A stretch of 64,000 nucleotides of DNA from Raillietiella orientalis (lineage: Eukaryota): positions 124,001 to 188,000 of the forward strand of contig JAYWIR010000090.1 in the NCBI GenBank assembly GCA_036172245.1, given 5' to 3'. Shown in pieces: positions 5,121-28,713 of this stretch. The position numbers and the translations under genes are program-made. Every line of letters begins with the position of its first letter. The stretch's first letter is position 1. Under the pieces are notes generated by a model. That model ran no database searches. It was not told where the DNA came from and saw nothing but the letters and a program-made list of their open reading frames with translations.

Positions 5121-5433
5121 TCATTGCCCTACCCTCCATAAACTAATCTTGTATTTTTATTGTACACCCGCGTCCCCATAGGCTCCGGAACATTTAAGGT
5201 GCTTATCGTTTAAATCCCCGTGAGTACGGAGCCTAACCAAAAACCCTTGGCCCTTCCCTCCAGTTTTTGATTTTTGTTTGTTTCCCCTCATTCCCCCCAC
5301 GCTGCGAGCGGTTTATTTACTAAGCCTGCGTGCCGGTAATTTTTCTATGTTCTCTATCGTTCTGTTGGCTGGGGGAATTGTCCCTGACCAGTTTATTATT
5401 ATTAATAAACGCCCCGGCGTGACCGGGTGATAA

Positions 5434-8400: not shown

Positions 8401-8571
8401 GCGGCATGGAGCGACACCAACAAGGAAGGAGTGGGTCAACACGCGAGGGATGTCATCCCATATGCCCAACGCTTCTTGCGGAGAGCTGCTGGATGGCCCC
8501 AACTGGAAAATATACGGATGGACCTCGAGGCCTTCCTTCAACGGATGGGCCCTCCTCTCAGCGAACAGTGA
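5434..8571 (+). pseudogene. Copy B ORF2 remnant (EN C-terminal half, RT, CCHC)
   Basis: IDHVY, WRPITI, RQGDSLSP, YADD, KYLG, CVRCGERESLSHLIVDC; stops at 5710, 6571, 7485, 7791 and a frameshift near 6940. Confidence 0.9.
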
Positions 8572-8780
8572 TCCCTTCCCTGCCCCCCAACCTCATTTGT
8601 ATGTTTGCCTTTTTGTTTTTATTTTTGTTTTTCCCCATCCCCTTTCGCTGCCGGGGAGTGCCACTCCGGGCTGCGTCCCGGCGTTTCGGTAGGTCCCGTG
8701 CATAAGGCCGTGGGCGGGGCCTGGTTCCGCAATTGTAGAGTTTTTTATAAATAAAAGCCAAGGGCATACCCGGGTGGCAA
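5434..8780 (+). mobile_element. Copy B, 5'-truncated non-LTR element (same subfamily as D/E)
   Basis: Begins inside EN at the GDFN codons (atttcaatctccg, matching D); ends AATAAA (8750-8755)...CCCGGGTGGCAA. Confidence 0.9.
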
Positions 8781-8791
8781 CGCCTAATGCC
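8781..8791 (+). other. Degenerate target/spacer motif between B 3' end and C 5' end
   Basis: cgcctaatgcc, 2 mismatches to cgccgaatccc; same context (GGTGGCAA|motif|TTGGCGAGTGG) as the E-D junction. Confidence 0.7.
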
Positions 8792-8887
8792 TTGGCGAGT
8801 GGACGTGTTTTTCCTACGCTTCCGAGTGAGTCGACAGGGAGCGGTTTTTTCTTTGTGTGTGTTCGTGTGGAACATCGTTGGGTTCCA
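8792..8887 (+). promoter_or_regulatory. ~96-bp 5' UTR, putative internal promoter
   Basis: Near-identical 5' UTRs in D (17197-17291) and E (22859-22953); motif ACGYGTTTTT...GCTYCCG..TGAG.CGA also in divergent F; promoter role inferred from LINE biology. Confidence 0.45.
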
Positions 8888-10760
8888 ATGGCAGCGATGC
8901 CTGAGGACACCACGATGGAGGTAGGTGTGGGGGAGGCTTGCCCACCTCCACAGCCTACAGAATCAGGAGCGTCCGCCCCGGAATCGCTCTCGCCGTCCAA
9001 GGCGAGTAGCTTGAGCGTCATGGTGGCCGCGCCGAGAGCGGAAACCATGGCCGAGATGGCGGCCTACCGGGCAGCTGAGTACAAGCCCAGCTTGGTGTAC
9101 CAGGTAGGCCCCTTATTTGATGGAAAAACGGCACGCGCGTTTTCGGAAGCGCTGCAAAACGCCGGAGTAAAAGAACAAGATCTTGACGGTTTTTCCGTTC
9201 TCAGCGGAGGTCAGCGAGTCGAGGTGGTGTGCAAGGAGATCACCTTGGCTCAGAAACTGATCACCAACCCGTTGAACGTCGACGGCCTCAAGATCTTGCC
9301 GGTGACGATGGACCGCTCCATGGTGGTCCATCTCACTGGAATAACGAGCCGTATGACTCGCTCTGCGGTAGCACAAGAACTTCGGAAGTTCGGCGAGGTG
9401 CACGCGCTGTGGCCTAAGCCAACAATCTTCGAAGGCCTTAATAGCCATTTCGGAGGCCAGGCTTCAGCGCGGGTAACCGTGAGTAAGGACTGTGGGCTTC
9501 CTTACAAGCTGGAGTTCGCGCAAGAGATAGTGGACCTCTGGTACGTGAGAAAGCCCCGGTATTGCGGCTACTGCGATACCGTAGGACACCTTCGCAAGAG
9601 GTGTGCTAACATCCAATGCCACATGTGCGGGGAGAAGGGCCACGTTCGACGTGTGTGCCCAAAACGCCCCACCCCGGATCCTCCTGCCGCGAAAAAGGCG
9701 CAGGGGAAACGCGCACTAAAGGTCACAAGACCTACGGCGGACGCTGGCCGGCAGAAGCTGCCAGATCCTCAACCTCCAAAAGAAAAGACGGAGGGTGAAC
9801 CTTCCCAAGAGGCGGAAGGTGAAGAGGGCTGGCAACTTGTAGCAGCCAGAAAAGAGAAAAAATCTTTTTTAAAGGAGAAGAAAGAGGAGCCGGTCGGTAA
9901 GGCAAAAAAAACCCGGGCCGCGCTCGAAAACTCTGCGCGTGTGCACGGTGGCACTGGAACGAATCGTCGTTCCCGAGGTTGCCACGCGGAGCGACGATCC
10001 TCCCCTTGCCGTTTACGCTGCTCTCGAGGCTCGCGACGACGAACCCTCTGTTTACACAGAGGGTGAGCCGCGCGACATAGCGGCGGTCGAAGCCGCGGAC
10101 GCCGCGTTCGCGCAGGCGGCGGAGGAGCTCGCGGTCACGCTGGCCGAGCGTGAGAACCCCTCGCGCAAGGCCGTGCGAAGGCCGGCTCCGGCGAAGAAGG
10201 CCCCCACAGGTGAGTTAGATCTGGGGGCCGGAAGTACATCCTCCTCCTCGGAGGCACCCCCCAGGAAGTCGGGACGCAATTCCCAGAAGCTAAGGAGGCG
10301 CCTCCCCTCCACCAGCGAGGAGAAGACGGAAGCCGTCGCCAGCGTGGGAAATTCGGAGGAGGAATTCCCACACTCGGAAGCCGTCGATCCGGCCACCCCC
10401 ATGGAAGAGGGTGAACAGGGGGGTGAAGTCTTCCCTGCAGGCGCCGACCCTGAACAGCCTGCCCTCATGGAGGAGGGCGAACAGGTAGGCGCGACCCCAC
10501 CTGTGGGTGAGCCAATCGACGTACAGTTTCTTATGGAGGAGGGTAACCAGGGGTCAGCAATGCCCTCTGAAACCGCCGAACCTGAACCACCCGCACCAAT
10601 GGATGTGGGCCAACAAGTACGAACAACACCCTCTTCGCACGGGCAGCCGGAGACGTCGGCACGTAAGAAGGATGGGGAGTTGGTGGGCAAGACGCCAACC
10701 CCGTCCAGAGACCCACCCCGAAAGGTGGCGGTCGCCGCAGTGCCATCTTCCCAGGAGTAA
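8888..10760 (+). pseudogene. Copy C ORF1 (two CCHC knuckles), one frameshift in the A-run near 9904-9911
   Basis: MAAMPEDTT start; CGYCDTVGHLRKRC and CHMCGEKGHVRRVC; continues in ORF 9939..10760, collinear with D/E ORF1. Confidence 0.87.
10401..10700 (+). repeat. 66-bp (22-aa) coding tandem repeat 'MEEGEQ...' in the ORF1 tail
   Basis: ATGs at 10401, 10467, 10533, 10599, exactly 66 bp apart, plus a degenerate fifth unit; 3 units in D and E. Confidence 0.8.
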
Positions 10761-11642
10761 CACCTGGACTCGCCTGTCGCCGTCGGATCCGCGCGGCCAG
10801 TTGGAATGTTAACGGGCTGCGCGACGACGGAAACAGACTAGATACAGCCGCCACCTTGCGAGATTTCGACCTGGTGCTTTTGCAGGAGATCCACGTGATC
10901 ACCGCAAAAGACGCCCAGGAGATCGAAACGATCGCAGGAGGGCGGTTGTACTGGCGATGCGGCGCCCGCAACACTTGTAGGGTCGCGTTCTTCCTAAAGC
11001 CAGCCATTAACGCGGCCGTGAAGGGCGATCGCTTTGGGGACGACGGACGGATCGGCCAACTGATTCTCAGATGGTCCGATTCGATCGACCTCATCGTCAC
11101 CAATGTGTACGCTCCTAGCGGTAAACAGGGATACCAGCAGCGCAACGCGTTACTGGAAACCTTGAAGCGCGAATGGCTGGTGGACGCGGACGTGCGAAAG
11201 GCGCATCTGATAGCACGGGATCTCAACGTCCGTCTGCTCTCAGATCAGCCCGGAGCACAGGGGAACGCGATCAACGAGTTGTGCGCCGCCATGCGCGCGC
11301 GCAACTTGTTGACAGAAATAAGCGGGTTGGTCAGCAGCGTGGACCACGTCTTCCTCGACGAAGACCTGTGCACACGGGTCGGAAAACGAGGGACACTTGG
11401 ATCGACGCTGTCGGACCATTCCCGGTTAGTATTCGAGATACGTCCGCGCGACAAGGAACCGCCTTCCAGGGATTGGCGTATGCCAGGGGACTGGACGCGC
11501 CTGTCAGGAGCGAAAGAACATCTTCGCGAATTCCTGCGAGGCGTCAGCCTCCAGAGTCTCGCGGATTGGGACCTATTTAAGGACTCGGTCCGGGAGTTCT
11601 GCGAACAGTTCCCTGTGCAACGTCTGCCCCGGGGATTCGGCG
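10760..11642 (+). pseudogene. Copy C ORF2 N-terminal part (APE endonuclease)
   Basis: SWNVNGL, LLQE, NVYAP, RDLN (degenerate GDFN), VDHVF, SDH. Confidence 0.88.
11632..11642 (+). other. Target-site duplication, left copy
   Basis: gggattcggcg; right copy gggattcgacg at 22954-22964. Confidence 0.82.
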
Positions 11643-11847
11643 TTGCCACCCGGGTACGCCCGGGGCGTTTATTGATAAACTTTACATGCGTGGTACAAGG
11701 CCCCACCACGGCCGTAAACACAGGACCTGTCGGGACACCGGGACGCAGCCCGGCGTGGCACTCCCCGACAGCGAAGGGGGATGGGGATGAGACAAAAAGT
11801 AAAATAAAAAGAAACAAACAAAAAGAAGTTGGAGGGCAGTGAAGGGA

Positions 11848-14800
11848 TCACTGGTCGCTGTGGGGAGGGCCCATCCGTCGAACGAAGCCCTCGAGGTCAG
11901 CCTGCATATTCCCCAGTTGGGGCCATCCGGCAGCTCTTCGCAAGAAGCGTTTGGCATACGGGATGACATCCCTCGCCTGTGGACCCACTCCTTCGTTGTT
12001 GGCGTCGCTCCATGCCGCCACGATACCACGGACGCAGCACAAGGCTGCGATGGCTGCGGCTGGCTGCAGTGCGTCCTTCACGAAGAGGGGCCGAAGAAAG
12101 TCTCTGGGGGTGCTGCCCGTAGGGAGCCCGAGGGTCGTCCCGAACCGTTCCCTAAGGGGTCTGAGGAAAGCACAATCCACAATAAGGTGGGGAAGCGACT
12201 CCCGCTCCCCGCACCTGGCACACCCAGGATCCACAGCTCCCCTCGTCCAGTGGAAGCGGCGCGCGTTGCAGGGTCGACCCCAGTGCAACAAAAGCAACGC
12301 CGACTCTTGCCACTTCAGGGGCAGGATCCTGGATTCTTTCATCACCGGGGGCCACTTCAGCTCATCCCTGGGGATGGCAAGCAGCTCGCCCCATCTTAAC
12401 AATCCTCGCGGCTGGACGCTCGGGGTCGAGGCGTCGGCCAGTTCTCCTGTTGTCCAGCCGCTGATCAACTTCTCCCGTCCCTCGATGCAGCAGGAGACTT
12501 GCCACCTTGGCGTCCGGGTGCTGTGAAGTGCCCTCCTTAGGAAGGGTAGCGCCGTAGCTAGGCAGGTCGTCTCTGCCCACGTGCATCTTGCTGGACTCTC
12601 CAGGAGATTCCGCAGCGTGCAGCGGGCGTAGGGGCTGCATCGGAGACGATTCCACGTTTCGTGGCTTCTCTGGTTGACTACTGCCCACGTTCCAATATTC
12701 TCCTCCAGCCAGGCGGGGGAGTTGGCGGGGCAGCAAACCATCCAGCTGTTCTCCTTGGCCAATGTTGCCATGCGACCGAGCAGTAGGCCGCATCTTCGCA
12801 TCTTCCGGCCACGGCTCAGAAGAAAAGACGCGAGTCCATCGCACCGGGACACACGGCTGGCCAGGAGGCGGGCCGGAGTGCACCAAGGGGTGCTCCACAT
12901 CTTCGCTGCGATGGCGAGGGTTCGCAACCGCAGCTGCTTTTCCACGCGCTCCAGCGTCAGGAGGCCAAGACCGCCGTCCCGACGCGGAGCGCACAAGTCC
13001 TTCAGTGGGACTCGGGGCCTCCCCTTGCCCCAAAGGGCGATACGGAGGAGGTCCTTCGTCCTCTTCTTGGATTCCACGGTGGGGGGGCAAACAAAAAGCA
13101 AGGGGCGGAGGATGGGGCCGCGAAGGGGTTCCAAACCGCGGCCCGTTCCGGCAAGTGAAACTTGCCTTCCAGGAACGGGCCGATCGCCGTCTCGACTTTT
13201 TGGAGGCAGCTGGACCACGCTTCCGCAGGGGAGTAGTCCCCCAACGGCACACCAAGGTACTTGAAGCACCTCGCCGTGTGGATCCCCAGACGGACCCAGT
13301 CCTGCTGCCCTGCCCACGCCGCACCTATTGGCACAACCGACGACTTCGCCCTGTTAACCTGCAGTCCGGTCCCGCGGCTGAGCAGATCGAAGAAGTCTCC
13401 GACCGCCATTGCCGGGGTGGACATTGGCAACAAAAGCAGAAGATCGTCGGCGTACGCTGCTACGGCGGGCGTGCCGGGGCACGAGCTCGGCAATGGGGCC
13501 AAAGTCACCCTGTACGCTCTCAGCACCAACTCAAAGTAGGTGCTGAAGAGCAGGGGGCTGAGGCTATCTCCCTGCCTTATGCCCCGTCGCACCGGCACGC
13601 CATGCACCTTGTGACCGCTGAAAGAGACGGTAATTGTCGCATTCCCACAGCAAGAGCGCAGGTAGGAAATCAGGGAGGGTGGAAAGCCTATGCGACCAAG
13701 GAGCTCCAAAAGGAGTTCCTGGTCTACACAGTCGAACGCCCTGTGGAGATCGACTGCGAGCGCTAGGGTTCCCTTCCCCGCCCGGGGTTCCCTTCCCATC
13801 CCGGCTGGCGTCCTTAATGTGGGGTTGCCGACTTTCCCTATCGCTTTCTTTTCTCTTCTTTGCAGGTGCACCCATGTGCTTGCGAAGAAGAGGTTGGCAT
13901 CCATACTTCGCCCGGGAACAGCATAAGTCTGCTCCGGGCTAATTACGGATTCTGCCACCAGCCCCAGACGCGAAGCCCATAGCCCTGCGATCAACTTGGC
14001 GTCCGTATTCACGATCGTGATCGGACGCCAGTTCTTTAAATCCCTGAGGTCTCCCCCTTTCGGCAGGAGCCTCACTCTGGCTGACCGAAACGAGGCGGGA
14101 ACATCGCCTTCGTCTCGGATCAGCCTGATCAACTTAAGCAGCAGGGGTGCGAGCTCCTCCGCGAAGCTCTGAAAGAACTCCGCGGGCAAGCCGTCTTCCC
14201 CTGGAGCTTTACGCCTCTTGAGCCTTTTGATACCGGCGAGAATTTCGCCGGTGGTAAAAGGCTCGTCGAGGCTTTCCATCTCCTCCTCCCCGATTGCCGG
14301 GGCGCCATCCGGAAGCAAGCGCCGAGAGGCGTTTCGATCCGGGGGCTGCCTGGCGTAAAGGGAGGAATAGAAACTCCGCACGAGATGCCGTACCGACGCC
14401 GGGGACGAACATTCCCGGCCCTGGTCGTCCAGCAAGCTGGCCGACCCGGATTGCCAGGCTTGGCGTTCGGCCCCGGCGCGGTACTCGGCCAGGCGACGGA
14501 CATTAGGGGTTCTCTCGTACCTACGAGCCTGTAAATAGGCCCGATGGTTGCGAGCACCCTCGCCGAATCCGGGGGCAGGCGATCCAGGGGGAACTGCTCA
14601 CAGAACTCGCGGACCGATTCCTTAAAAAGGTCCCAGTCCTGGAGATTCCGGAGCGTGACACCTCTCAGGTATTCGCGAAGGTATTCCTTCGCACCTGAGA
14701 GTCGCGTCCAGTCCCCCGGCAGACGACAATCCCTGGATGGCGGTCCCTTGTCACGAGGCCGCATCTCGAAAATTAACCGGGAATGGTCCGACAACGTCGA

Positions 14801-15442
14801 CGCAACCCTCCCCCGTTTGCCGACCCGTGAACACAGGTCAGCGTCGATGAAGACGTGGTCGATGCTGCGGACCATTCCCCTCTCACCCGCGAACAAGTTG
14901 CGCGCACGCATGGCGGCGCACAACTCGTTCATCGCGTTCTCTTGTGTTTCTGGCTCACCTGTTAGCAGACGGAGATTGAAATCTCCCGCTATCAGGTGAG
15001 CCTTCCGCACGTTCGTGTCCGCCAGCCAGTCGCGCTTCAGGGAATCCAGCAGCCTGGTACGGTCGCTGTATCCCTGTTTACCGCTGGGGGCGTACACATT
15101 CGTGACGATCACTTCGATCGAGTCGGACCAGCTGAGAATCAGCTGACCGACCCGACCGTCGTCATCGAAGCGCACGCCCTTCACGGCCGCGTCGATGGCC
15201 GGCTTCACGAAGAACGCGACCCCGCAGGTGTTGCGGAGGCCGCACCGCCAATACAGCCGACCCCTCGCGATCGTCTCGATCTCCTGGGCGTCTGCCGCGG
15301 TGATCACGTGGATCTCCTGCAGCAGGGCCAGGTCGAGCTCACGCAGGGTGTCGGCCGTATCTCGCCTGTTACCGTCGTCGCGCAGCCCGTTGACGTTCCA
15401 ACAGGCGGCGCGAATCCGACGGCGACTGGCGAGCCCAGGTGT
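11848..15442 (-). pseudogene. Copy D ORF2 (APE-RT-CCHC), frameshifts near 14571 and 13115
   Basis: ORF pieces 14129..15307, 13002..14435 and 11848..13317 carry GDFN, IDH, SDH, YADD, KYLG, CARCGERESLPHLIVDC. Confidence 0.92.
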
Positions 15443-17196
15443 TATTCCTGGGAAGATGACGATGCGGCGTCCGCCACCTGTTGGGGCGGGACGCTAGGTG
15501 GAGGAGGAGGGTCAGGCGCTGCGTGCACCTGGTCCCCCTCCTCCATGGGTAACGGCGCGTCAAGGGGGTCACCCTTAAGTGGGGTGGTGCCTACCTGTTG
15601 GCCCTCCTCCATGGGGGCGGGCTGTTCAGGCTCGGCGACTGCAGGGAGGACTTCGCCCCCCTGCTCACCCTCCTCCATGGGGGTGGCCGGCTCGAAGGCT
15701 TCCGCGCGTGGGAGTTCCCCCTCCGGGATTCCCACGCTACCGCTACCTTCCTGCTTCTCCTCCTCGCTGGTGGAGGGGAGGCGCCTCCTGGGTTTCTGGG
15801 ACTTGCGTCCCGACTTCCTGGAAGGTGCCTCCGAGGAGGAGGATGCACTTCCGGCCCCCAGGTCCGACTCACCTGTGGGGGCCTTGTTCGCGGGAGCCGG
15901 CCTTCGCACGGCCTTGCGTGAGGGGTTCTCACGCTCCGCCAGCGTGGCCGCGAGCTCCTCCGCCGCCTTTGCGAACGCGGCGTCCGCAGTGTCGACCGGC
16001 GCGTCGCGCGGCTCACCCTCTGTGTAAACAGAGGGTTCTTCGTCGCGAACCTCGGGCGCGGCGGAAACGGCGAGGTAAGGCTCGTCGCCCCGGGTGGCAA
16101 TCTCGGGAACGGCTATACGCTCCAGTGCTACCGTACATTCCCGCATGGTCTTAGAGCGCGGCCCAGGTTTTTTCGCCTTGCCGGCTGTCTTTTTTACCGC
16201 TTTCGCGGGTTCCGCGGGGTGCACCTTTTTCTCCTACCTGGCCTTGACCATCTGCCAGCCGTCTTGGACTCCCGCGTCTTCGGAGGGTTTTTCTTCCGAC
16301 GCCTGTGTGGGAGGAACAGGGGCTAGCGGCTGCTGCCGGCCAGTATCTCTTTTTGGTCTTTCGACCAGTTTACTGCGTTTTGCCTGTGCTTTTTTTGCAG
16401 CAGGCGGCACCGGAGTGGGGCGTTTAGGGCATACGCGGCGTACGTGGCCCTTCTCCCCGCATAAGTGGCACACAATGTTCGGGCACCGCTTGCGCAAGTG
16501 TCCTACTGCATTGCAGTAACCACAAAAGCGGGGTTTCCCCACGTACCAGAGGTCTACGACTTCGCCATTGACCTCTAGTTTGTGGGGAAGCCCACTCTCG
16601 TTCACCGTCACGCACGCGGCGGCCTGCCCTCCGAAAAGGCTATCGTAGCCATCGAAGATTGTGGCCTTTGGCCAAAGCGCGTGAACATCCCCGTGCTTTC
16701 TTAACTGATCACCAACCGCAGACCGCGTCATGCGGCTGGTGATCCCTGTCAGATGGACCACTACGGAGCGGTCCATCGTGACTGGTAGGATCTTGCGTCC
16801 GTCCACGTTCAGCGGGGTGGTTATCAAGCTTTGCGCTAAGGTGATGTCCTTGCAGACAACCTCAACGCGCTGACCCCCGCTTAGCACGGATAGACCGTCA
16901 AGGTCCTTTTCTAACACGTTGGCGTTCTGCAGTGCTTTCGAAAAAGCGCGTGCAGTTCGCCCGTCAAAGAGATTGCCTACCTGGTAAACCAAGCTGGGCT
17001 TGTACCCAGCTGCCCGGTAGGCCGCCATCTCGGCCATGGTTTCCGCGCTCGGCGCGGCCACCATGGCGCTCCAGCTCCTCGCCTTGAGCGGCGAGGGCGA
17101 TTCCGGGGCGGACGCCCCTGATTCTGTAGGCTGTGGGGGTGGGCAAGCCTCCCCCACACCTATATTCATCGTGGTGTCCTCAGGCATCGCTGCCAT
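15442..17196 (-). pseudogene. Copy D ORF1, single in-frame TAG at 16234-16236
   Basis: 16234..17229 and 15442..16224 share a frame; E has AAG at the stop position; two CCHC knuckles. Confidence 0.9.
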
Positions 17197-17291
17197 CGGA
17201 CACCAACGATGTTCCACACTGAACAACACAACAAAAAACCGCTTCCTGTCGACTCACTCGGGAGCGAAGGAAAAACACGTCCACTCGCCAA

Positions 17292-17302
17292 GGGTTTCGG
17301 CG
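17292..17302 (+). other. Target-motif spacer between tandem copies D and E
   Basis: gggtttcggcg between D's 5' end and E's 3' end. Confidence 0.8.
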
Positions 17303-17508
17303 TTGCCACCCGGGTACGCCCGGGGCGTTTATTGATAAACTTTACATGCGTGGTACAAGGCCCCACCACGGCCGTAAACACAGGACCTGTCGTGACACCG
17401 GGACGCAGCCCGGCGTGGCACTCCCCGACAGCGAAGGGGGATGGGGATGAGACAAAAAGTAAAATAAAAAAGAAACAAACAAAAAGAAGTTGGAGGGCAG
17501 GGAGGGGA

Positions 17509-20500
17509 TCACTGGTCGCTGTGGGGAGGGCCCATCCGTCGAACGAAGCCCTCGAGGTCAGCCTGCATATTCCCCAGTTGGGGCCATCCGGCAGCTCTTC
17601 GCAAGAAGCGTTTGGCATACGGGATGACATCCCTCGCCTGTGGACCCACTCCTTCGTTGTTGGCGTCGCTCCATGCCGCCACGATGCCACGGACGCAGCA
17701 CAAGGCTGCGATGGCTGCGGCTGGCTGCAGTGCGTCCTTCACGAAGAGGGGCCGAAGAACGTCTCTGGGGGTGCTGCCCGTAGGGAGCCCGAGGGTCGTC
17801 CCGAACCGTTCCCAAAGGGGTCGGAGGGCAGCACAATCCCCAATAAGGTGGGGAAGCGACTCCCGCTCCCCGCACCTGGCACACGCAGGATCCACAGCTC
17901 CCCTCGTCCAGTGGAAGCGGCGCGCGTTGCAGGGTAGACCCCAGTGCAACAAAAGCAACGCCGACTCTTGCCACTTCAGGGGCAGGATCCTGGATTCTTT
18001 CATCACCGGGGGCCACTTCAGCTCATCCCTGGGGATGGCGAGCAGCTCGCCCCATCTTAACAATCCTCGCGGCTGGACGCTCGGGGTCGAGGCGTCGGCC
18101 AGTTCTCCTGTTGTCCAGCCGCTCATCAACTTCTCCCGTCCCTCGATGCAGCAGGAGACTTGCCACCTTGGCGTCCGGGTGCTGTGAAGTGCCCTCCTTA
18201 GGAAGGGTAGCGCCGTAGCTAGGCAGGTCGTCTCTGCCCACGTGCATCTTGCTGGACTCTCCAGGAGATTCCGCAGCGTGCAGCGGGCGTAGGGGCTGCA
18301 TCGGAGACGATTCCACGTCTCGTGGCTTCTCTGGTTGACTACTGCCCACGTTCCAATATTCTCCTCCAGCCAGGCGGGGGAGTTGGCGGGGCAACAAACC
18401 ATCCAGCTGTTCTCCTTGGCCAATGTTGCCATGCGCCCGAGCAGTAGGCCGCATCTTCGCATCTTCCGGCCACGGCTCAGAAGAAACGACGCGAGTCCAT
18501 CGCACCGGGACACACGGCTGGCCAGGAGGCGGGCCGGAGTGCACCAAGGGGTGCACCACATCTTCGCTGCGATGGCGAGGGTTCGCCACCGCAGCTGCTT
18601 CTCCACGCGGTCCATCGTCAGGAGGCCAAGACCGCCGTCCCGACGCGGAGCGCACAAGTCCTTCAGAGGAACTCGGGGCCTCCCCTTGCCCCAAAGGGCG
18701 ATACGGAGGAGGTCCTTTTTCCTCTTCTTCGATTCCACGGTGGGGAAGCAAACAAAAAGCAAGGGCGGAGAATGGGGGACGCGAAGGCGTTCTAAACCGC
18801 GGCCCGTTCCGGCAAGTGAAACTTTCCTTCCAGGAACGGGCCGATCGCCGTCTCGACTTTTTGGGGGCAGCTGGCCCACGCTTCCGCAGGGGAGTAGTCC
18901 CCCAACGGCACACCAAGGTACTTGAAGCACCTCGCCGTGGGGATCTTCAGACGGATCCAGTCCTGCTGCCCTGCCCACGCCGCACCTATTGGCACAACCG
19001 AGGACTTCGCCCTGTTAACCTGCAGTCCGGTCCCGGGGCTGAGCAGATCGAAGAAGTCTCCGACCGCCTTTGCCGGGGTGGACATTGGCAACAAGAGCAG
19101 AAGATCGTCGGCGTACGCTGCAACGGCAAGCGTGCCGGGGCACGAGCTCGGCAATGGGGCCAGAGTCACCCTGTACGCTCTCAGCACCAACTCAAAGTAC
19201 GTGCTGAAGAGCAGGGGGCTGAGGCTATCTCCCTGCCTTATGCCCCGCCGCACCGGCACGCCATACACCTTCTGTCCACTGAAAGAGACGGTAATCATCG
19301 CCTTCCGCCAGCAAGAGCGCAGGTAGGAAATCAAGGAGGGTGGGAAGCCCATGCGACCCAGAAGCTCCAAAAGGAGTTCCTGGTCTACACAGTCGAACGC
19401 CTTGTGGAGACGGACTGCGAGCGCTAGGGCCCCCTTCCCCGCCCGGGGGTCTTTTCCCAGCCCGGCTGGCGGCCCCAATGTGGGGTTGCCGACTTTCCCT
19501 ATCCCTTTCTTCTCTCTTCTCTGCAGGTGCACCCATGTGCTTGCGAAGAAGAGGTTGGCATCCATACTTCGCCCGGGAACAGCATAAGTCTGCTCCGGGC
19601 TAATTACGGATTCTGCCACCTTTCCCAGACGCGAAGCCCATAGCCCTGCGATCAACTTGGCGTCCGTATTCACGATCGTGATCGGACGCCAGTTCTTTAA
19701 ATCCCTGAGGTCTCCCCCTTTCGGCAGGAGCCTCACTCTGGCTGACCGAAACGAGGCGGGAACATCGCCTTCGTCTCGGATCAGCCTGATCAACTTAAGC
19801 AGCAGGGGTGCCAGATCTTCCGCGAAGCTCTGAAAGAACTCCGCGGGCAAGCCGTCTTCCCCTGGAGCTTTACGCCTCTTGAGCCTTTTGATACCGGCGA
19901 GAATTTCGCCGGTGGTAAAGGCTCGTCGAGGCTTTCCATCTCCTCCTCCCCTATTGCCGGGGCGCCATCCGGAAGCAAGCGCCGAGAGGCGTTTCGATCC
20001 GGGGGCTGCCTGGCGTAAAGAGAGGAATAGAAACTCCGCACGAGATGCCGTACCGACGCCGGGGACGAACATTCCCGGCCCTGGTCGTCCAGCAAGCTGG
20101 CCGACCCGGATTGCCAGGCTTGGCGTTCGGCCCCGGCGCGGTACTCGGCCAGGAGACGGACATTAGGGGTTCTCTCGTACCTACGAGCCTGTAAATAGGC
20201 CCGATGGTTGCGAGCACCCTCGCCGAATCCGGGGGGCAGGCGATCCAGGGGGAACTGCTCACAGAACTCGCGGACCGATTCCTTAAAAAGGTCCCAGTCC
20301 TTGAGATTCCGGAGCGTGACACCTCTCAGGTATTCTCGAAGGTATTCCTTCGCACCTGAGAGTCGCGTCCAGTCCCCCGGCAGACGCCAATCCCTGGATG
20401 GCGGTCCCTTGTCACGAGGCCGCATCTCGAAAATTAACCGGGAATGGTCCGACAACGTCGACGCAACTCTCCCCCGTTTGCCGACCCGTGAACACAGGTC

Positions 20501-21105
20501 AGCGTCGAGGAAGACGTGGTCGATGCTGCGGACCATTCCCCTCTCACCCGCGAACAAGTTGCGCGCACGCATGGCGGCGCACAACTCGTTCATCGCGTTC
20601 TCTTGTGTTTCTGGCTCACCTGATAGCAGACGGAGATTGGAATCTCCCGCTATCAGGTGAGCCTTCCGCACGTTCGTGTCCGCCAGCCAGTCGCGCTTCA
20701 GGGAATCCGTGCGCCCGGCATTGTCAGCGTATCCCTGTTTACCGCTGGGGGCGGCACAGTTCGGTGATCGATCGGATTGATCGAGTCGGACCAGCTGAGA
20801 ATCAGCTGACCGATCCGACCGTCGTCATCAAACCGCACGCCCTTTACGGCAGCGTCGATGGCCGGCTTCACGAAGAACGCGACCCCGCAGGTGTTGCGGA
20901 GGCCGCACCGCCAATACAGCCGACCCCCCGCGATCGTCTCGATCTCCTGGACGTGCGCCGCGGAGATCACGTGGATCTCCTGTAGCAAGGCCAGGTTGAA
21001 CTCACGCAGTGGGTCGGCTGTGTCTCGCCTGTTGCCGTCGTCGCGCAGCCCGTTGACATTCCAACAGGCGGCGCGAATCCGACGGCGACTGGCGAGCCCA
21101 GGTGT
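17509..21105 (-). pseudogene. Copy E ORF2 (APE-RT-CCHC), frameshifted
   Basis: Pieces 20698..20988, 19790..20671, 18792..20072, 17509..18978; YADD present; GDSN instead of GDFN; indel cluster at ~20705-20780. Confidence 0.92.
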
Positions 21106-22858
21106 TATTCCTGGGAAGATGGCGATGCGGCGTCCGCCACCTGTTGGGGCGGGACGCTAGGTGGAGGAGGAGGGTCAGGCGCTGCGTGCACCTGGTCCCC
21201 CTCCTCCATGGGTAACGGCGCGTCGAGGGGGTCACCCTTAGGTGGGGTCGCGCCTACCTGTTGGCCCTCCTCCATGGGGGCGGGCTGTTCAGGCTCGGCG
21301 ACTGCAGGGAGGACTTCGCCCCCTTGCTCACCCTCCTCCATGGGGGTGGCCGGCTCGACGGCTTCCGCGCGTGGGAGGTCCCCCTCCGGGATTCCCACGC
21401 TACCGCTACCTTCCTGCTTCTCCTCCTCGCTGGTGGAGGGGAGGCGCCTCCTGGGTTTCTGGGACTTGCGTCCCGACTTCCTGGGGGGGGCCTCCGAGGA
21501 GGAGGATGCACTTCCGGCCCCCAGGTCCGACTCACCTGTGGGGGCCTTTTTCGCGGGAGCCGGCCTTCGCACGGCCTTGCGTGAGGGGTTCTCACGCTCC
21601 GCCAGCGTGGCCGCGAGCTCCTCCGCCGCCTTTGCGAACGCGGCGTCCGCAGTGTCGACCGGCGCGTCGCGCGGCTCACCCTCTGTGTAAAGAGAGGGTT
21701 CGTCGTCGCGAACCTCAGGCGCGGCGGAAACGGCGAGGGAAGGCTCGTCGCCCCGGGTGGCAATCTCGGGAACGGCTATACGCTCCAGTGCTACCGTACA
21801 TTCCCGCATGGTCTTAGAGCGCGGCCCAGGTTTTTTCGCCTTGCCGGCTGTCTTTTTTACCGCTTTCGCGGGTTCCGTGGGGTGCACCTTTTTCTCCTTC
21901 CTGGCCTTGACCAGCTGCCAGCCGTGTTGGACTCCCGCGTCTTCGGAGGGTTTTTCTTCCGACGCCTGTGTGGGAGGAACAGGGGCTAGCGGCTGCTGCC
22001 GGCCAGTATCTCTTTTTGGTCTTTCGACCAGTTTACCGCGTTTTGCCTGTGCTTTTTTTGCAGCAGGCGGCACCGGAGTGGGGCGTTTAGGGCATACGCG
22101 GCGTACGTGGCCCTTCTCCCCGCATAAGTGGCACACAATGTTCGGGCACCGCTTGCGCAAGTGTCCTACTGCATTGCAGTAGCCACAAAAGCGGGGTTTC
22201 CCCACGTACCAGAGGTCTACGACTTCGTCATTGACCTCTAGTTTGTGGGGAAGCCCACTCTCCTTCACCGTCACGCGCGCGGCGGCCTGCCCTCCGAAAA
22301 GGCTATCGTAGCCATCGAAGATTGTGGCCTTTGGCCATAGCGCGTGAACATCTCCATATTTTCTTAACTGATCACCAACCGCAGACCGCGTCATACGGCT
22401 GGTGATCCCTGTCAGATTGACCACTACGGAGCGGTCCATCGTGACTGGTAGGATCTTGCGTCCGTCCACGTTCAGCGGGGTGGTTATCAAGCTTTGCGCC
22501 AAGGTGATGTCCTTGCAGACAACCGCGACGTGCTGACCCCCGCTGAGCACGGATAGACCGTCAAGATCCTCTTCCAACACGTTGGCGTTCTGCAGCGCTT
22601 TCGAAAAAGCGCGTGCAGTTCACCCGTCAAAGAGATTGCCTACCTGGTACACCAGGCTGTGCTTGTACCTAGCTGCCCGGTAGGCCGCCATCTCGGCCAC
22701 GGTTTCGCGCTCGGCGCGGCCACCATGGCGCTCCAGTTCCTCGCCTTGGGCGGCGAGGGCGATTCCGGGGCGGACGCTTCTGATTCTGTAGGATGTGGGG
22801 GTGGGCAAGCCTCCCCCACACCTACCTCCATCGTGGTGTCCTCAGGCATCGCTGCCAT
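21105..22858 (-). pseudogene. Copy E ORF1, 1-bp deletion near 22705
   Basis: 22640..22891 plus 21105..22580; CGYCNAVGHLRKRC and CHLCGEKGHVRRVC. Confidence 0.9.
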
Positions 22859-22953
22859 CGGACACCAACGATGTTCCACACTAAACAACACAACAAAAAA
22901 CCGCTTCCTGTCGACTCACTCGGGAGCGAAGGAAACACACGTCCACTCGCCAA

Positions 22954-22964
22954 GGGATTCGACG
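22954..22964 (+). other. Target-site duplication, right copy
   Basis: gggattcgacg followed by aaggggctcgcaac (GFDEGARN), the expected continuation of C ORF2 (cf. E: GFGEGARN). Confidence 0.82.
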
Positions 22965-25671
22965 AAGGGGCTCGCAACGAACGCCCGTATTTGCACGCGC
23001 GTCGTCACGAAAGGAACCCCAATGTCCGTCGCCTAGCCGAATACCGCGCCGGAGCCGAGCGACAAGCCTGGCAATCCGGGTCAGCCAGCATGCTGGATGA
23101 CTTGGGCCGGGAACGTTCGTCGCCGTCTGCGGTACGGAATCTCGTGCGGTGTTTTTATTCCTCCCTTTACGCCAAAAGACCACCCGAACAAGACGCCTCG
23201 CGGCGATTGCTCATGAGTGGTTCCGTGGCGATAGGGGAGGAGGAGAGAGAAAGCCTTGATGAGCCTTTCACGACCGGTGAAATTCTCGCCGGTATCAAAA
23301 GGCTTAAGAGGCGTAAGGCGCCAGGGGAGGACGGCTTGCCCGCGGAGTTCTTTCAGAGTTTCGCGGAAGAGCTGGCCCCCCTGGTGCTCGAGTTGAAGGG
23401 CGAATCCGAGGCGAAGGCGATGTTACCTCCTCGTTTCGGTCAGCCAGGGTGAGGCTCCTCCCGAAGGGAGGAGACCTCAGGAAACTTTGCAACTGGCGTC
23501 CGATCACGATTGTGAACACGGACGCCAAGTTGATTGCCGGGCTGTGGGCGTCGCGATTGGGGCAGGTGTCCAATTCCATAATTAGCCCGGAGCAGACTTA
23601 CGCTGTTCCCGGGCGAAGTATGGAGGACAACCTCTTCTTCGCGAGCACATGGATGCACGCGCAGCGGAGTAATAAAGAAGGGAAAGGGAAAATTTGCAAC
23701 CCTACTTTGGGGCCGCCAGCGGGACAGGGTAGGGACCCTCATGCGAGAAAGTGGGCCTTAGCGATCGCAGTCGACCTCCATAAGGCATTCGACTGTGTTG
23801 ACCAGGAACTCCTCTTGGAGCTCCTGGGTAGCATGGGCTTCCCACCCTCCTTGATTACCTACCTGCGCTCTTGCTGGCGGAACGCGATAATCGCAATTAC
23901 TTTCAGTGGACAAAAGGTGTATGGCGTGCCGGTGCGGCGGGGCATAAGGCAGGGCGACAGCCTCAGCCCCCTGCTTTTTAGCACCTACGCTGAGTTGGTG
24001 CTGAGAGCGTACAGGGTGACTTTGGCGCCCTTGCCGAGCTCGTGCCCCGGCACGCCAGCCGTAGCGGCGTATGCCGACAATCTTCTGCTCCTCTTACCTA
24101 TGTCCACCACGGCGAAGGCGGTCGGAGATTTCTTCGACCTGCTTAGCCGTGAGGCCGGATTACAGGTTACCAGGGCGAAGTCGTCAGTGTTGCCAGTTGG
24201 AGCGACGTGGGCAGGGCAGCAGGACTGGGTCCGTCTGGGGATCCCCACGGTAAGGTTCATCAAGTACCTCGGTGTGCCGTTGGGGGACTTCTCCCCTGCG
24301 GAAGCGTGGTCCAGCTGCCTCCAAAAAGTCGAGACGGCGATCGGCCCGTTCCTGGAAGGCAAGTTTCACTTGCCGGAATGGGCCGCGGTTTGGAACGCCT
24401 TCGCGGCCGTCATCCTCCGCCCCTTGCTTTTTCTTTGCCCCGCCCCCGTGGAATCAAAAAAGCGGACGAAGGACCTCCTCCGCATAGCTCTTTGGGGCAA
24501 GGGGAGGCCCCGAGTCCCTTTGAAGGACTTGTGTGCTCCGCGTCGGGACGGCGGTCTCAGCATCCTGACGCTGGAGCGCGTGGAAATCCAGCTGCGATGG
24601 CGGACCCTTGCCATCGCAGCGAAGATGTGGAGCACCGCTTGGTGCATTCCGGCTCGCCTCCTGGCCAGGCGTGTGTCCCGCTCCGAAGGACTCGCATCGT
24701 TTCTTCTGTGCCCTGGCCGGAAGATTCGAAGATGCGGTCTACTGCTCGGCCGCATGGCAACCCTGGCAAAGGAGAACGACTGGATGGTTTGTGGCCCTGC
24801 CAACTCCTCCGCTTGGCTGGAAGAGACTGCTGGCACCTGGGCCAAGCAGAACCAGAGGTGCGAAGACCGGATGAACTGCCTGCGATTCGGCTTTTACGCC
24901 CGCCGAACTCTCCGTGAAATTCTTCAATTTCCACGGAGTTGCACGTGGGCGGAAGGCACACCCCTTGTTACGGCGATGCCCTTCCTCCAAAGAGCGCTTC
25001 ACGAAAGCCGGAAGCCAACGTGGCAAGTCTGCTGCCGTATCGCAGGCAGAGAGAAGATGATGAGCGGCTGGACCATGGGAGAGTTGACAGATGCAACGAC
25101 CCCTAATCTCCAGCCGCGTGGATTAAGAAGATGGGGCGAGCTGCTCGGCATTCGATTGGATGACCTGAAGTGGCCCCCGTGTCTACTTGGATCCAGGATT
25201 CTTCCCCTGAAGTGGCAAGAATCGGCGCTTCTGTGGCTGCATTGGGGTCTACCCTGCAACGCGCGCCGCTTCCACTGGACGCGGGGAAGAGTAAATCCTG
25301 CGTGTGCCAGGTGTGGGGAGCAGGAGTCGCTCCCCCACCTCTTAGTTGAATGCCCTGCCGTCCAGATTCTTTGGGATCGTCTGAAAACGGCCCTCCGGAT
25401 ACCGGATGGTGGCAATGTTGGATGTGTCTTCAGTCTGGTCTTCGTGCGGGACGCTCTCAGTCCAGCCGCAGCCCTGGCAGCACTTTGCTGCATTCGTGGT
25501 ATTGTGGCGGCCTGGAGTGATGCCGAACATGAAGACTGCATCGTGAGGGACGTCATCGAGTATGCTTCTCGCTTCCTGCAGAGAGCTACCCGATGGCCCC
25601 ATCTAGGAAAGCTGAAAATGGAACTAAAAGGCATCCTGCAAAGGATGGGCGCTCCCAGCAGTTTTCAGTGA
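22955..25671 (+). pseudogene. Copy C ORF2 C-terminal part (RT and CCHC)
   Basis: 740-aa ORF 23449..25671 with WRPITI, DLHKAFD, RQGDSLSP, YADN (catalytic D to N), KYLG, CARCGEQESLPHLLVEC; frameshift near 23395. Confidence 0.9.
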
Positions 25672-25899
25672 TCCCTTCCCGGCCCTCCAAACTTTTTTTT
25701 TTGTGGTTTGTTTTTCTTTTTTATTTTATTTTTGTTTTTTCCCCCATCCCCCTCCACTGCCGAGGAGAGCCACACCGGGCTGCGTCCCGGTGTCCCGGCA
25801 GTTCCGGTATTGCGTGACCGTCAGTGGGGCCTTGTACCACGTTCTGTATTGACCGTTGAAATGTTTTTTAATAAACGTCCCGGCGTATCCGGGTGGCAT

Positions 25900-26785
25900 C
25901 GCCGAAACCTGGAGGAAGTTGATGGAGGGGAAACTGGTCACAGAACTCTGGGACTGAGCGTTTTATTTTGTCCCAGTCAGCGAGAGTCTGCAGTTCGCAA
26001 CTACGCAGGAATGCGCGCAGATGTTCGCGCGGTCCTGCGAGTCGCAACCAGTCCCCCGGCAGGCGCCACGTTTCGGAAGGTGGACCTCTGTCGCGCGGAT
26101 GAATGTTGATCACTAGCCGAGAGTGATCGGACAGTTGCGACGCAATTGCTCCTCGAGTCCCCATCCGCGTACACAAGTGGTTATCGAGGAACACGTGGTC
26201 GATTCTGCTTCTCGCCCCGGCTTCATCGGCCAACAAGTTGCGTGTGTGCATAGCCGCACACAACTCGTTGACCAATTGCGCTCGTATGTCGGGCGCTTCC
26301 GACAGCAGGCGGACGTTGAAGTCTCCCGCTATCAGATGCGCCCGCCGCACGCCTGCTTCGGCCAGCACGTCTCGCCGCAGGGCTTCGAAGAACGCAGTGC
26401 GTTCTGCGCGCCTGTGGCTGGTGCAGGGCGCGTACAGGTTCGTGACTACGAGGTCGATCGATTCGGACCACTTAAGGACAAGTTGTCCGACTCGACCTCC
26501 CTCGTCGAACTGTGCACTGCGCACCGCATTGGCCACGGCCGGCTTCAGCAGGAAGGCCACTCCGCGGGAGTGGTCTCCTCCACCACGCCAAAGTAGCCTG
26601 TCCCCTGTGAGCCTCTCGATTTCCTGGACGTCCTCTGCTCTGAAGGCATGCACCTCTTGAAGAAGTGCCAGATCGAAAGGTCGCAGGGTGTCGGCCACGC
26701 TACGCCTCTTGCTTTCGCTACGCAGCCCGTTGACATTCCAACAGGCTATACGCAGCTGCCGGCAAGAGGCGATTACACGCATCAT
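25900..26785 (-). pseudogene. Copy F ORF2 N-terminal part (APE endonuclease)
   Basis: CWNVNGL, LLQE, NLYAP, GDFN, RIDHVF, SDH in one open frame. Confidence 0.9.
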
Positions 26786-28414
26786 ACTAGTGATGGTGGT
26801 GGCGTGTGTATTGCCGCCTCCTGTTCGGGAGGCGGCTGGTCGTTGTCCATCTGCGGTGGTGGCGTTTCGGCAACGACCGGAACGTCTGCAGCCGGACTGA
26901 GGTCGATAGGAAGGACCGACCGGATGCTGTCGATGGAGGGATCCCGCGACCTCGCGGACATCGCCTCCTCGCTATCCGAGCGCATCTCCTCCTCCTCAGC
27001 CTGAGGGGGAGCGACGCGCATAGGGTTGCGCGACTTCCGGCCCGCCTTCCTCTTCGGAAGAGCGACGGTGGGAGGGTTCCCGGCTTCCGCCTCGGACTCG
27101 GAAGTTTCCGGGCCCTTAACTTCCGCCGGACGTCTGACGGCCTTCTTTGCAGCCTTAGGCGTCTGCATTAAAGTGGCCGCGAGTTCCTCCGCCGCCTTCG
27201 CGAAGTTTTTCTCGTCTCTGCTGCACGCGTGTTTGTCGCAGGATTCCTGCGGCGGTTCGGCGGCGTTCGCGACGGTTGCAGGAGTCGCGTTCGCCGATCG
27301 ACGCTCGATCGACGGAACGCGCTCGATTGAAACACGGCATTCCTTTATGGACTCGCGCGGCGAAATTTTTGGTTTGCCGACCGCGGATTTTTTCGGAACG
27401 CTCGCGTTCTGATTTTTTGAGTTTTTTGTAGGGATTTTTTTTGTTTTGTTTTCAATTTGTTTGGGTTTTTTGCCGGAGACGATTTTCCAGCCTTCCTCGT
27501 CGGCATTTGGATCAGAAGTCTCCTTTTGAGGCTCCTGCTCCTTGTGCACGACTTCTTCTGAAGTCGGCTTTCCATCGCTCTTTGCTTTAAATTCTGCCTT
27601 CTTCCCCTCGTTTGTCGAAGGGGCTGAAGGCGGTTTTCGCGGCGGTTTTCGGGCACACAGCACTAGTGTGGCCCTTCGCGCCGCAAATTGGGCATGTAGC
27701 ATCCGGGCATCTCTTTTTAAGATGCCCGAATGTGTTGCACAGCCCACAGTATTTTTTCTTCCCCACGTACCAGAGGTCGACGAGCTCGTCGTTGACTTCA
27801 AGCTTATGGGGAAGTTCTTTATTTTCGCGGAGAGTTACCCGCGCGGCCACTCGCCCACTGAATGCGCCTCGATAAGTAAAGGCGTTGGGCTTTGACCACA
27901 TCGCTTATATCTCCGCGAATTTGTTGATTTCAGTGCGGATGGCTTCATCGGTCATCCGCACCGTTGTACCCGTGAGGTGGATCACCATAGAGTGATCCAC
28001 CGTGTGTGGGAGGCGATTCCGCCCTTCGAACGGAACGGGCGTGCAGAGCAGTTTGTGTGTGAGCGCTGCATCTTTGCAGATCAGCTCCGCGAACTGCCCG
28101 CCGCTCCGAATCGAGAAGCAAAGAATCTCCTCGTCAGAGATTCCCATCCTACGGATGGCGTTTCCAAATTTCCGCGTTGTAAGCAGTGAATAAAGATTTC
28201 CTACCTTGTAAAGGAGGGCTGGGTTGTAGCCCTCCTTTATGTAGGCCTGCACTTCGGCGGCCAATTCCGGCGGAGCCGCCGCAGCCACCTTTTTCCACGC
28301 CCTCGCCGGGGTGGCAGGGGCTGATTTTCTGGACGGGCATGACCCCACCTCCATAGGTTGGGGAGACGTGGGCCTCACGTCTCCCGTCGCAGGTACTGCA
28401 GCGTCTTCAGGCAT
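26782..28414 (-). pseudogene. Copy F ORF1, disrupted
   Basis: MPEDAAV start homologous to MPEDTT; stop at ~27905; CGLCNTFGHLKKRC and CPICGAKGHTSAVC; frameshift near 27645. Confidence 0.85.
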
Positions 28415-28713
28415 TTCTGCCTTCCAACGGCAGCACTTCCAATCCACACAACACCTAGTTTTGGCTTCGCTCACGGGAGCTGACCAAAAACGCGTGCGGC
28501 ACCGGCGCAGGTTTGCCGCATTCAAGAGGTTTCAAATTGCATAGATGATGCTAATGATAAGTGTACGTTTAGTGGTGTGGAAAGAAAAGCAATTTCTGTT
28601 ATGGATGGAGGGTATCAAACAGAGCATTACAAGAAAAATCGCGACATTGTCTGGGAAACGCACTATAGAAAGGACCACCATTCCATGGTGATCCAACATT
28701 CTGATTCCTGAAT

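Follow-up and report, generated by a model that had tools for sequence, protein, structure and literature searches.

Why does a family of retrotransposons lie inside itself, and why are two of its members broken at the same base of the same reading frame? The question is raised by a 64,000-nt stretch of DNA from Raillietiella orientalis (positions 124,001 to 188,000 of contig JAYWIR010000090.1), which was analyzed as a single window and to which all counts of junctions, sites, and copies in this text apply. Positions 1-28,731 of the window consist almost wholly of copies from one lineage of long interspersed nuclear elements (LINEs) that encode an apurinic/apyrimidinic endonuclease-like (APE) domain and a reverse transcriptase (RT); six copies, designated Z, A, C, D, E, and F, are located within 1-28,530. 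From the sequence of their junctions, it is likely that these elements undergo site-specific, target-primed insertion into the antisense of the Gly-Phe-Gly-Glu/Asp codons in the linker between the endonuclease (EN) and RT domains of their own second open reading frame (ORF2), and that the duplicated site is re-used to give tandem arrays. A broader reading, toward which we lean with some reserve, is that of a self-homing LINE lineage. Its machinery would recognize 11 bp that its own ORF2 must encode; this target would be held by selection on the element's own protein, would be common to sub-lineages that are 55-80% identical, and would be regenerated by duplication, giving nested and tandem arrays beside a satellite, in a plausibly pericentromeric position, without a host-genome target.

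Two antisense insertions at one base of ORF2

The copies were mapped by self-BLAST, a scan for terminal motifs, tblastx against copy E, and MAFFT alignment of element halves. We designate the site GGGATTCGGCG as X; H1 extends from the 5' end of an element to X, and H2 extends from X to the 3' end. The 5' half of copy C (C.H1; 8792-11642, plus strand) begins at a full-length 5' end (TTGGCGAGTGGACGTGT), contains ORF1 and the APE endonuclease, and ends in a left target copy, GGGATTCGGCG (11632-11642). Its ORF2 frame reads …LPRGFG to 11641/11642, and from 11643 it is followed by the reverse complement of a complete element 3' end. This end belongs to copy D (11643-17291, minus strand; 3' end at 11643, 5' end at 17291), a full-length element of 5,649 bp that lies antisense inside C. 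The full-length copy E (17303-22953, minus strand; 5,651 bp) is located behind it, separated from D by the 11-mer CGCCGAAACCC (17292-17302, minus strand) at the head-to-tail junction of the E 3' end and the D 5' end. The 3' half of C (C.H2; 22954-25899, plus strand) opens with a right target copy, GGGATTCGACG (22954-22964), which together with the following AAGGGG restores the frame as GFDEGARN.

The 11.3-kb D+E insert is flanked on either side by the 11 bp GGGATTCG[G/A]CG, and uninterrupted D and E carry the site once. These 11 bp are a target-site duplication with one mismatch. The mismatched position, 22962, is A in C and G in three contigs of related copies from a public DNA run (designated X1; among the matches listed), indicating that the A is private to the C copy.

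The second event places C itself as the guest. The 3' end of C (…CCGGGTGGCA T, 25892-25899) abuts CGCCGAAACCT (25900-25910), the antisense of …LPPGFG in copy F, and these codons are homologous to those broken in C. Of F, the 5' half is present (F.H1; 25900-28530, minus strand); it retains the APE domain and is broken at its X, AGGTTTCGGCG (25900-25910, antisense CGCCGAAACCT). The breaks are thus at the homologous base in the two hosts, 11642/11643 in C and 25899/25900 in F. Because the 3' end of the guest lies against the 5' half of the host in both events, both guests are antisense. The first-pass annotation of this DNA had described two antisense insertions at one position, with C broken at LPRGFG and resuming at 22954 as GFDEGARN, and with F broken at LPPGFG where the C 3' end sits; re-reading of the sequence gives the same coordinates and the same letters throughout. 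The same annotation suggested looking to the left of A for the missing 3' half of F. We searched for it there, and it is not within the window; the plus-strand copy Z occupies that place instead.

For an element of ~5.65 kb, the chance that a second insertion would strike this base again in the same orientation is ~1 in 11,000 (our own arithmetic, not a tool output). The nucleotide identities across the two junctions are unequal, being 55% between C.H1 and F.H1 and 81% between D.H2 and C.H2 (MAFFT). Because the flanks have diverged to different extents and C is the guest in one event and the host in the other, the sequences indicate that the C and F events are independent of each other and not copies of one ancestral junction.

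Site X is placed ~75 codons past the Exo_endo_phos match and ahead of RVT_1, in the EN-RT linker. Its codons specify G-F-G-(E/D), and its antisense is 5'-CGCCGAAWCCC-3'; with flanking letters, the target 11-mer reads as a duplex …CCCGGGGATTCGGCGAAGGGG…. The site is conserved as GG(A/T)TTCGG(C/A)G in Z, C, D, E, and F. In C, X is GGATTCGGCG and is occupied by D and E. The same letters are found as exact matches, both empty, in D (14561-14571) and E (20221-20231). In F, X is GGTTTCGGCG (25900-25910) and is occupied by C. The uninterrupted, empty site of Z (2406-2415) is GGTTTCGGAG, with one mismatch, and that of A (5849-5858), also empty, has decayed to GGATCCGGCA. The proposal that the target is encoded by conserved linker codons is borne out by these alignments, in which the codons are kept in the six copies and four sub-lineages, decayed in A. 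Moreover, a C-type element in an F-type host and a D/E-type element in a C-type host imply that X works across sub-lineages.

The window contains five exact copies of the 10-mer CGCCGAAWCC (11633, 14561, 17293, 20221, and 25900), each of them at an X site or a junction, compared with ~0.25 occurrences expected in a uniform 64-kb sequence by our own calculation. With one mismatch allowed, it is not enriched in the window (11 found, 9.24 expected; 32 of 100 shuffles reach 11). Therefore, the argument rests on the placement of the motif and not on its frequency.

The pairwise nucleotide identities (MAFFT unless noted) describe how the copies are related. D and E are 96.2% identical in H1 and 97.0% in H2, A is 92.1% identical to each of them, and C is 80.4-80.8% identical to D and E in both halves and 78.6% to A. 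F shares 55-56% with C, D, or E, and Z is ~67% identical to the other copies over the aligned parts (self-BLAST). From these values, at least four sub-lineages are represented among the copies of the window. C.H1 and C.H2 are equidistant from D and E (80.5% and 80.7%; self-BLAST and MAFFT), as expected of two halves of one element. ORF2 is broken in D and E by private 1-nt indels at differing homopolymer positions (e.g. columns 1870 and 1881 of the H2 alignment), which could be true decay or homopolymer errors of long reads. We also considered whether D and E share frameshifts, as copies of a single defective master or products of a DNA duplication would, and rejected this because the indels are at different homopolymer positions.

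Element ends and probable re-use of the duplicated site

The domain content of the copies was assigned by Pfam. Exo_endo_phos (PF03372) is matched in C (E 1.7e-7) and F (E 1.3e-14), in frames ending at 11842 and 25868, and RVT_1 (PF00078) is matched in C, E, and Z, the match in Z lying in an ORF at 2985-3629. Among solved structures, the best matches are the human LINE-1 EN (E 2.6e-7) and LINE-1 ORF2p (E 2.6e-18). ORF1 of E has a zf-CCHC match (E 3.4e-5), and in ORF1 of C (8888-10066), two CX2CX4HX4C knuckles are visible. C.H2 has an open frame of 784 aa (23317-25671) that covers the RT and a C-terminal Cys/His motif. A match to zf-RVT at the ORF2 C-terminus is weak (E 0.0021, below the cut-off), and C385, C388, H396, and C401 of the motif are invariant in an alignment of five copies.

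Five 3' ends are present (5404-5433, 8750-8780, 11643-11673, 17303-17333, and 25870-25899). All of them have AATAAA 24-25 nt before the last base, followed by a GC hairpin, CCCCGGG-CGTA-CCCGGG, with six predicted pairs and little covariation. Neither a poly(A) tail nor any A-run is present at the five ends. The shared hairpin and AATAAA without an A-tail fit recognition of a specific 3' end and not of poly(A). The green-algal LINE Zepp has a poly(A) tail, in contrast to the copies of the window. Read as the reverse complement from 11643, the 3' end of D is …CCCGGGTGGCAA / …AATAAACGCCCCGGGCGTACCCGGGTGGCAA, with AATAAA 25 nt before the last base, and that of C is …AATAAA N17 GGTGGCAT. The full-length 5' ends of C, D, and E each begin with TTGGCGAGTGGACGTGT, and the 5' terminus of the family is TTGGCGAGTGG…; its 3' terminus has the form AATAAA-N17-18-GGTGRYA.

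Two further copies precede C on the plus strand. Copy Z (1-5433), a member of a divergent sub-lineage, has its 5' end outside the window and its 3' end at AATAAA…CCGGGTGATAA. Two bases of this end (…CCGGGTGATAA, 5405-5440) are unlike the GGCAA of the other copies. Copy A (5434-8780) is 5'-truncated, beginning ~415 bp upstream of X, and has the 3' end …CCCGGGTGGCAA. The A 3' end and the C 5' end are joined head to tail through the 11-mer CGCCTAATGCC (8781-8791, plus strand), a degenerate form of the target.

At four of the five 3' ends, a single A or T comes after the last base and leads into an 11-mer of the CGCCGAAWCCY type. These 11-mers are CGCCGAATCCC, CGCCGAAACCC, CGCCGAAACCT, and CGCCTAATGCC, and the one at A|C departs from CGCCGAAWCCY at two bases. 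A target-like 11-mer also stands directly before all three unambiguous full-length 5' ends (C, D, and E). The 3' end of E is thus connected through A + CGCCGAAACCC to the 5' end of D, and the 3' end of A through A + CGCCTAATGCC to the 5' end of C. On the simplest reading, the target is regenerated by the duplication and later copies enter there, giving the arrays Z-A-C in F and E-D in C. This affects a further claim of the first-pass annotation, namely that each insertion inactivates an older copy. It is true of the nested insertions, but the apparent head-to-tail re-use in Z-A-C and E-D would spare ORF2 of the other copies, and the bookkeeping by which each insertion kills an older copy would change.

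A proposed target-primed scheme and its alternatives

The anatomy of the junctions, the duplication, the use of one site in two hosts, and the domain content are directly observed, and the following scheme is built on them. The lineage would consist of APE-endonuclease LINEs with CCHC knuckles in ORF1 and with APE, RT, and the C-terminal Cys/His motif in ORF2, and would integrate by target-primed reverse transcription into the 11-bp site 5'-CGCCGAAWCCC-3'. The first nick would be placed on the sense strand of the host copy, at …TTCGGCG^A; given that the 3' end of the guest is joined where it is seen, the priming 3'-OH must be that of the host sense strand. This 3'-OH would prime cDNA synthesis on the element 3' end, and a second nick, 11 bp off on the other strand, would leave the site duplicated on both sides of the new copy. 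Entry into a fresh copy would produce the nested antisense pattern. Because the duplication regenerates the target, later insertions would adjoin earlier ones head to tail, with no further copies destroyed. For this scheme, we infer the nick positions, the order of insertion, the source of the specificity (the endonuclease or RNA-target pairing), and the generality across the genome.

Several observations weigh against the scheme. There are only two nesting events, and the event in F is visible at its 3' junction only. The 3' end of Z (5433) meets the 5'-truncated A directly, with no 11-mer and no filler; this would fit entry of A into the site that follows Z and loss of the duplicate upstream, in which case the leftmost copy would be the oldest. 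Four of the six X sites are empty, including the exact matches in D and E, which are the youngest-looking copies. In both tandem pairs, the middle 11-mer deviates from the host-type copies, which simple re-use of the site would not lead one to expect; the deviation is 1 of 11 bases in E|D (CGCCGAAACCC, compared with …GAATCCC on both outer sides) and 4 of 11 in A|C (CGCCTAATGCC, compared with CGCCGAAACCT). These deviant 11-mers hint that the RNA carries part of the 11-mer along or that dimers are mobilized together. In one contig of run X1, among the matches listed, an element 3' end is followed by 7 letters of other sequence and then by an E-like copy, which is entered 72 nt from X; this joint may be a 3' flank other than X. 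The fixed antisense self-target that was proposed at first pass holds in the window for the base, the orientation, the 11-bp duplication, and hosts only 55% identical, but the 3' end of Z, which lacks the 11-mer, does not conform to it.

One alternative is that the site is chosen by pairing of nucleic acids and not by a sequence-specific endonuclease. Transcripts of nested or tandem copies would bear an 11-nt tag beside the element, originating from 3' read-through or a 5' leader; this tag would anneal to the homologous 11-mer of another copy, or the RT would jump between such RNAs. Other site-specific LINEs insert precisely with the help of read-through sequence that pairs with the target. 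In both tandem pairs, the middle 11-mer is unlike the host copies, as a tag borne by RNA from another locus would give, and exactly 11 nt of target-like sequence stand ahead of every full-length 5' end. The lineage would still be self-targeting, but the 11-mer would be partly element-borne and not a target-site duplication. On the other hand, both outer copies around D+E are of the host type (…GAATCCC), as a true duplication predicts; the position of AATAAA, 24-25 nt before the end, argues for RNAs that end at the element boundary and not 11 nt beyond it; and pairing alone leaves the first nick at this base unexplained. We therefore regard the pairing model as rather unlikely.

Two other explanations dispense with recognition of the site, and we consider each of them very improbable. 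The elements could prefer their own cluster through chromatin or centromere targeting, as proposed for Zepp and ZeppL, and the coincidence of the breaks would then be chance or a hotspot without a recognition sequence. The clustering of Zepp by nested insertion into existing copies (PMC8226300, in the portion that describes it), the satellite array adjoining the LINE cluster, and the four empty sites among six are compatible with such a preference. It is difficult to reconcile with the same base and orientation in two hosts (~1 in 11,000 by our arithmetic), with the 11-mer that also follows the 3' ends at two tandem junctions, and with an X that is kept though the hosts are only 55% identical. 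Alternatively, the junctions could result from an assembly error or from DNA rearrangement in a repeat region, such as an inversion or the segmental duplication of one ancestral composite junction. D and E, as 5.65-kb tandem copies that are 96-97% identical and near a satellite, are a typical setting for misjoins, and run X1 derives from relatives, with 10 of 504 pieces at least 99% alike. However, the breaks are exactly at complete element termini, with the 11-bp duplication on both sides of D+E, whereas misjoins and inversions in repeats arise inside homologous stretches and do not connect a 3' terminus with an internal site. The unequal divergence of the flanks across the two junctions (55% versus 81%) and the private indels of D and E, together with their distinct middle 11-mer, also argue against misassembly.

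Relatives, comparable systems, and surrounding DNA

An exhaustive protein search against 1.84 billion representatives gave 17,026 hits at E ≤ 1e-3, of which only 7 were at E ≤ 1e-30. P0001, 64% identical, is the single close relative of the RT ORF, and the next hits are at ≤31%. The second-best hit of the exhaustive search, P0035 (1555 aa; 43% identical over short stretches), is a gene model built from one partial RT segment in four repeats; truncated LINE copies arrayed in tandem in a different organism may be its origin, and it is not of the same family. The EN ORF crossing the C|D junction had no hits among proteins of near length, and the junction region had none among shorter proteins. 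No Zepp or ZeppL sequence was among the protein search hits. A degenerate pattern of the 3' end found no matches in metagenome, prokaryote-genome, or viral contigs. Protein-guided locus searches gave 117 pattern-matching stretches in metagenome contigs and 23 in prokaryote-genome contigs, none of which was confirmed in either set, and nothing in viral contigs. A search of public runs found no RNA run sharing the sequence.

The DNA run X1 has a word share of 0.22 and was aligned at 80% likeness to positions 20000-28700. Of its 504 pieces, 10 are at least 99% alike, 42 are at 95-99%, 130 are at 90-95%, and 322 are below 90%. This spread indicates that the run contains relatives and is not from the source genome. 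Three joints between opposite strands (20000-20255 and 22956-23227) are expected from uninterrupted related copies aligned to a chimeric reference. The 3' untranslated region of C contains a T-rich 24-bp tandem stretch at 25692-25739. The bin at these positions has the top summed contig depth in run X1 (345.7, compared with 1-75 elsewhere), with loose ends on both sides. The peak is probably due to low-complexity sequence common to unrelated DNA.

For phylogenetic placement, a quick maximum-likelihood RT tree of 55 rows, unrooted and with few named references, was calculated from 75 candidates (72 hits and three window copies). P0035 and P0036 were excluded beforehand, P0075-P0183 were unused, and 20 candidates covering fewer than 200 query residues or with a span above 700 were dropped (P0006, 13, 16, 18, 20-25, 27, 29-32, 34, 38, 41, 54, and 68). 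In this tree, P0001 and the window copies group together as an isolated clade (SH-aLRT 100, where SH-aLRT is the Shimodaira-Hasegawa-like approximate likelihood ratio test; stem length 1.09). The fork to which the clade connects is unresolved and also leads to two plant L1-like proteins, to a frog-containing group, and to a large group that includes Danio Tx1. The 37-row split with Danio Tx1 (SH-aLRT 98) excludes the window family, as judged by a single named Tx1 reference with a best identity of 29%. The element is probably an APE LINE of the L1/Tx1 supergroup, and its membership in the Tx1 clade is unsupported. The Tx1 group, which the first-pass annotation had named for comparison, is thus not confirmed as its place by the RT tree, in which the family falls outside the split holding the one named Tx1.

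Among known systems, the most similar are Zepp (Chlorella and Coccomyxa) and ZeppL (Chlamydomonas). According to the relevant portions of three reports (PMC8226300, PMC3446292, 10.1101/2022.06.16.496473), these L1-clade LINEs insert into their own copies and build up nested or tandem clusters at putative centromeres, in some cases with satellites alongside; for Zepp, one nested cluster per chromosome is described (Blanc et al. 2012, PMC3446292). The window resembles them in nested self-insertion within a local cluster, with six copies in 28.5 kb, two of them broken and two pairs head to tail, and in a cluster that is GC-rich relative to its surroundings (PMC3446292, in the section concerned). 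Zepp and ZeppL arrays are mostly 5'-truncated in the account consulted (PMC8226300), whereas three of the four guests with visible 5' ends in the window are full length (C, D, and E; not A). The insertions here also differ in being antisense at one base of ORF2.

Sequence specificity is well described for APE LINEs of the Tx1 and R1 clades (Tx1L, Keno, Kibi, Koshi, R1, and TRAS/SART), the targets of which are multicopy and include other transposons (PMC4640811, PMC4494074, in the passages on targets). As far as those passages go, the lineage of the window has in common with them an APE endonuclease, junctions that are precise at a single target (here within one window), and the filling of a repeated target in tandem (PMC4640811, PMC4494074). 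It differs in that the target lies in its own coding sequence, in antisense, and is neither a host repeat nor a different transposon. It is also unlike Tx1 in having an RT outside the Tx1-holding split, and its EN and RT best match human L1 among solved structures. CNL1 of Cryptococcus neoformans, an R2-superfamily, MoTeR-like element, is reported to insert preferentially into its own copies in arrays, with a specificity called 'undefined' in the part of the report consulted (PMC12810828). According to the same part, CNL1 belongs to the restriction-like-endonuclease kin, is subtelomeric and mostly 5'-truncated, and has target-site duplications of 0-13 bp (PMC12810828), in contrast to the APE domain and the defined 11-bp site with its duplication observed here. 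Telomere arrays attach to chromosome ends or telomeric repeats and, unlike the window cluster, have no internal coding target and no antisense nesting. GilM and GilT of Giardia, together with HeT-A, TART, and TAHRE, exemplify head-to-tail LINE arrays in a dedicated chromosomal niche (PMC10088271, in the portion on such arrays).

Self-nesting (Zepp and CNL1) and site-specific LINEs (Tx1 and R1) are each already known. What is new is that these features are combined: a defined 11-bp target with an 11-bp duplication lies, in antisense, within conserved coding sequence of the element itself, and the copies are mostly full length and lack poly(A). Full-text searches of the literature found no account of a LINE that has a fixed antisense target in its own ORF2, although the original Zepp papers may yet record a site preference.

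Site-specific LINEs persist by targeting multicopy sequences of the host, such as rDNA, small nuclear RNA genes, telomeric repeats, and other transposons. If the proposed scheme is true, a target in the element's own coding sequence would link site-specific LINEs with self-nesting clusters, and the number of landing sites would be predicted to scale with copy number. Zepp and ZeppL clusters are thought to make up green-algal centromeres, and the cited portions of these reports give no sequence rule for the nesting (PMC8226300, PMC3446292). The scheme would provide a sequence-level mechanism for the growth of such centromere-type LINE clusters, explained by ordinary target-primed reverse transcription. 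It would also raise an evolutionary question, since insertion into a fresh copy kills that copy and re-use of a duplicated site does not, and it would describe a compact, defined 'safe-harbour' targeting module.

With regard to other features of the cluster, an Rfam scan (e.g. for a 5' ribozyme) gave nothing at the gathering score, and a tRNA scan found no tRNAs. The 5' boundary of F is uncertain and lies within 28506-28530. Both candidate boundaries (28500-28560, minus strand) are preceded by (G/C)AAACC in AT-rich, non-LINE DNA; this resembles the target core, and the founding insertion could have occurred outside any LINE, subject to the uncertainty of the boundary. An AT-rich, non-satellite spacer of ~200 bp (28531-28731) separates the F 5' end from a satellite. 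The satellite is a single array (28732-64000; 278-bp unit, 126.9 copies, 82% matches, ~40% GC) that runs past the end of the window. CGCCGAA and CCGAAWCC are absent from it on either strand. We considered the satellite as the primary target of the LINEs and rejected it, on the grounds that it has no copies of the target core and that the ~200 bp adjoining F are non-satellite. The GC content is ~58-64% in 1-28,731 and ~40% in 28,732-64,000, and a satellite beside a GC-rich LINE cluster resembles the arrangement of a (peri)centromeric region.

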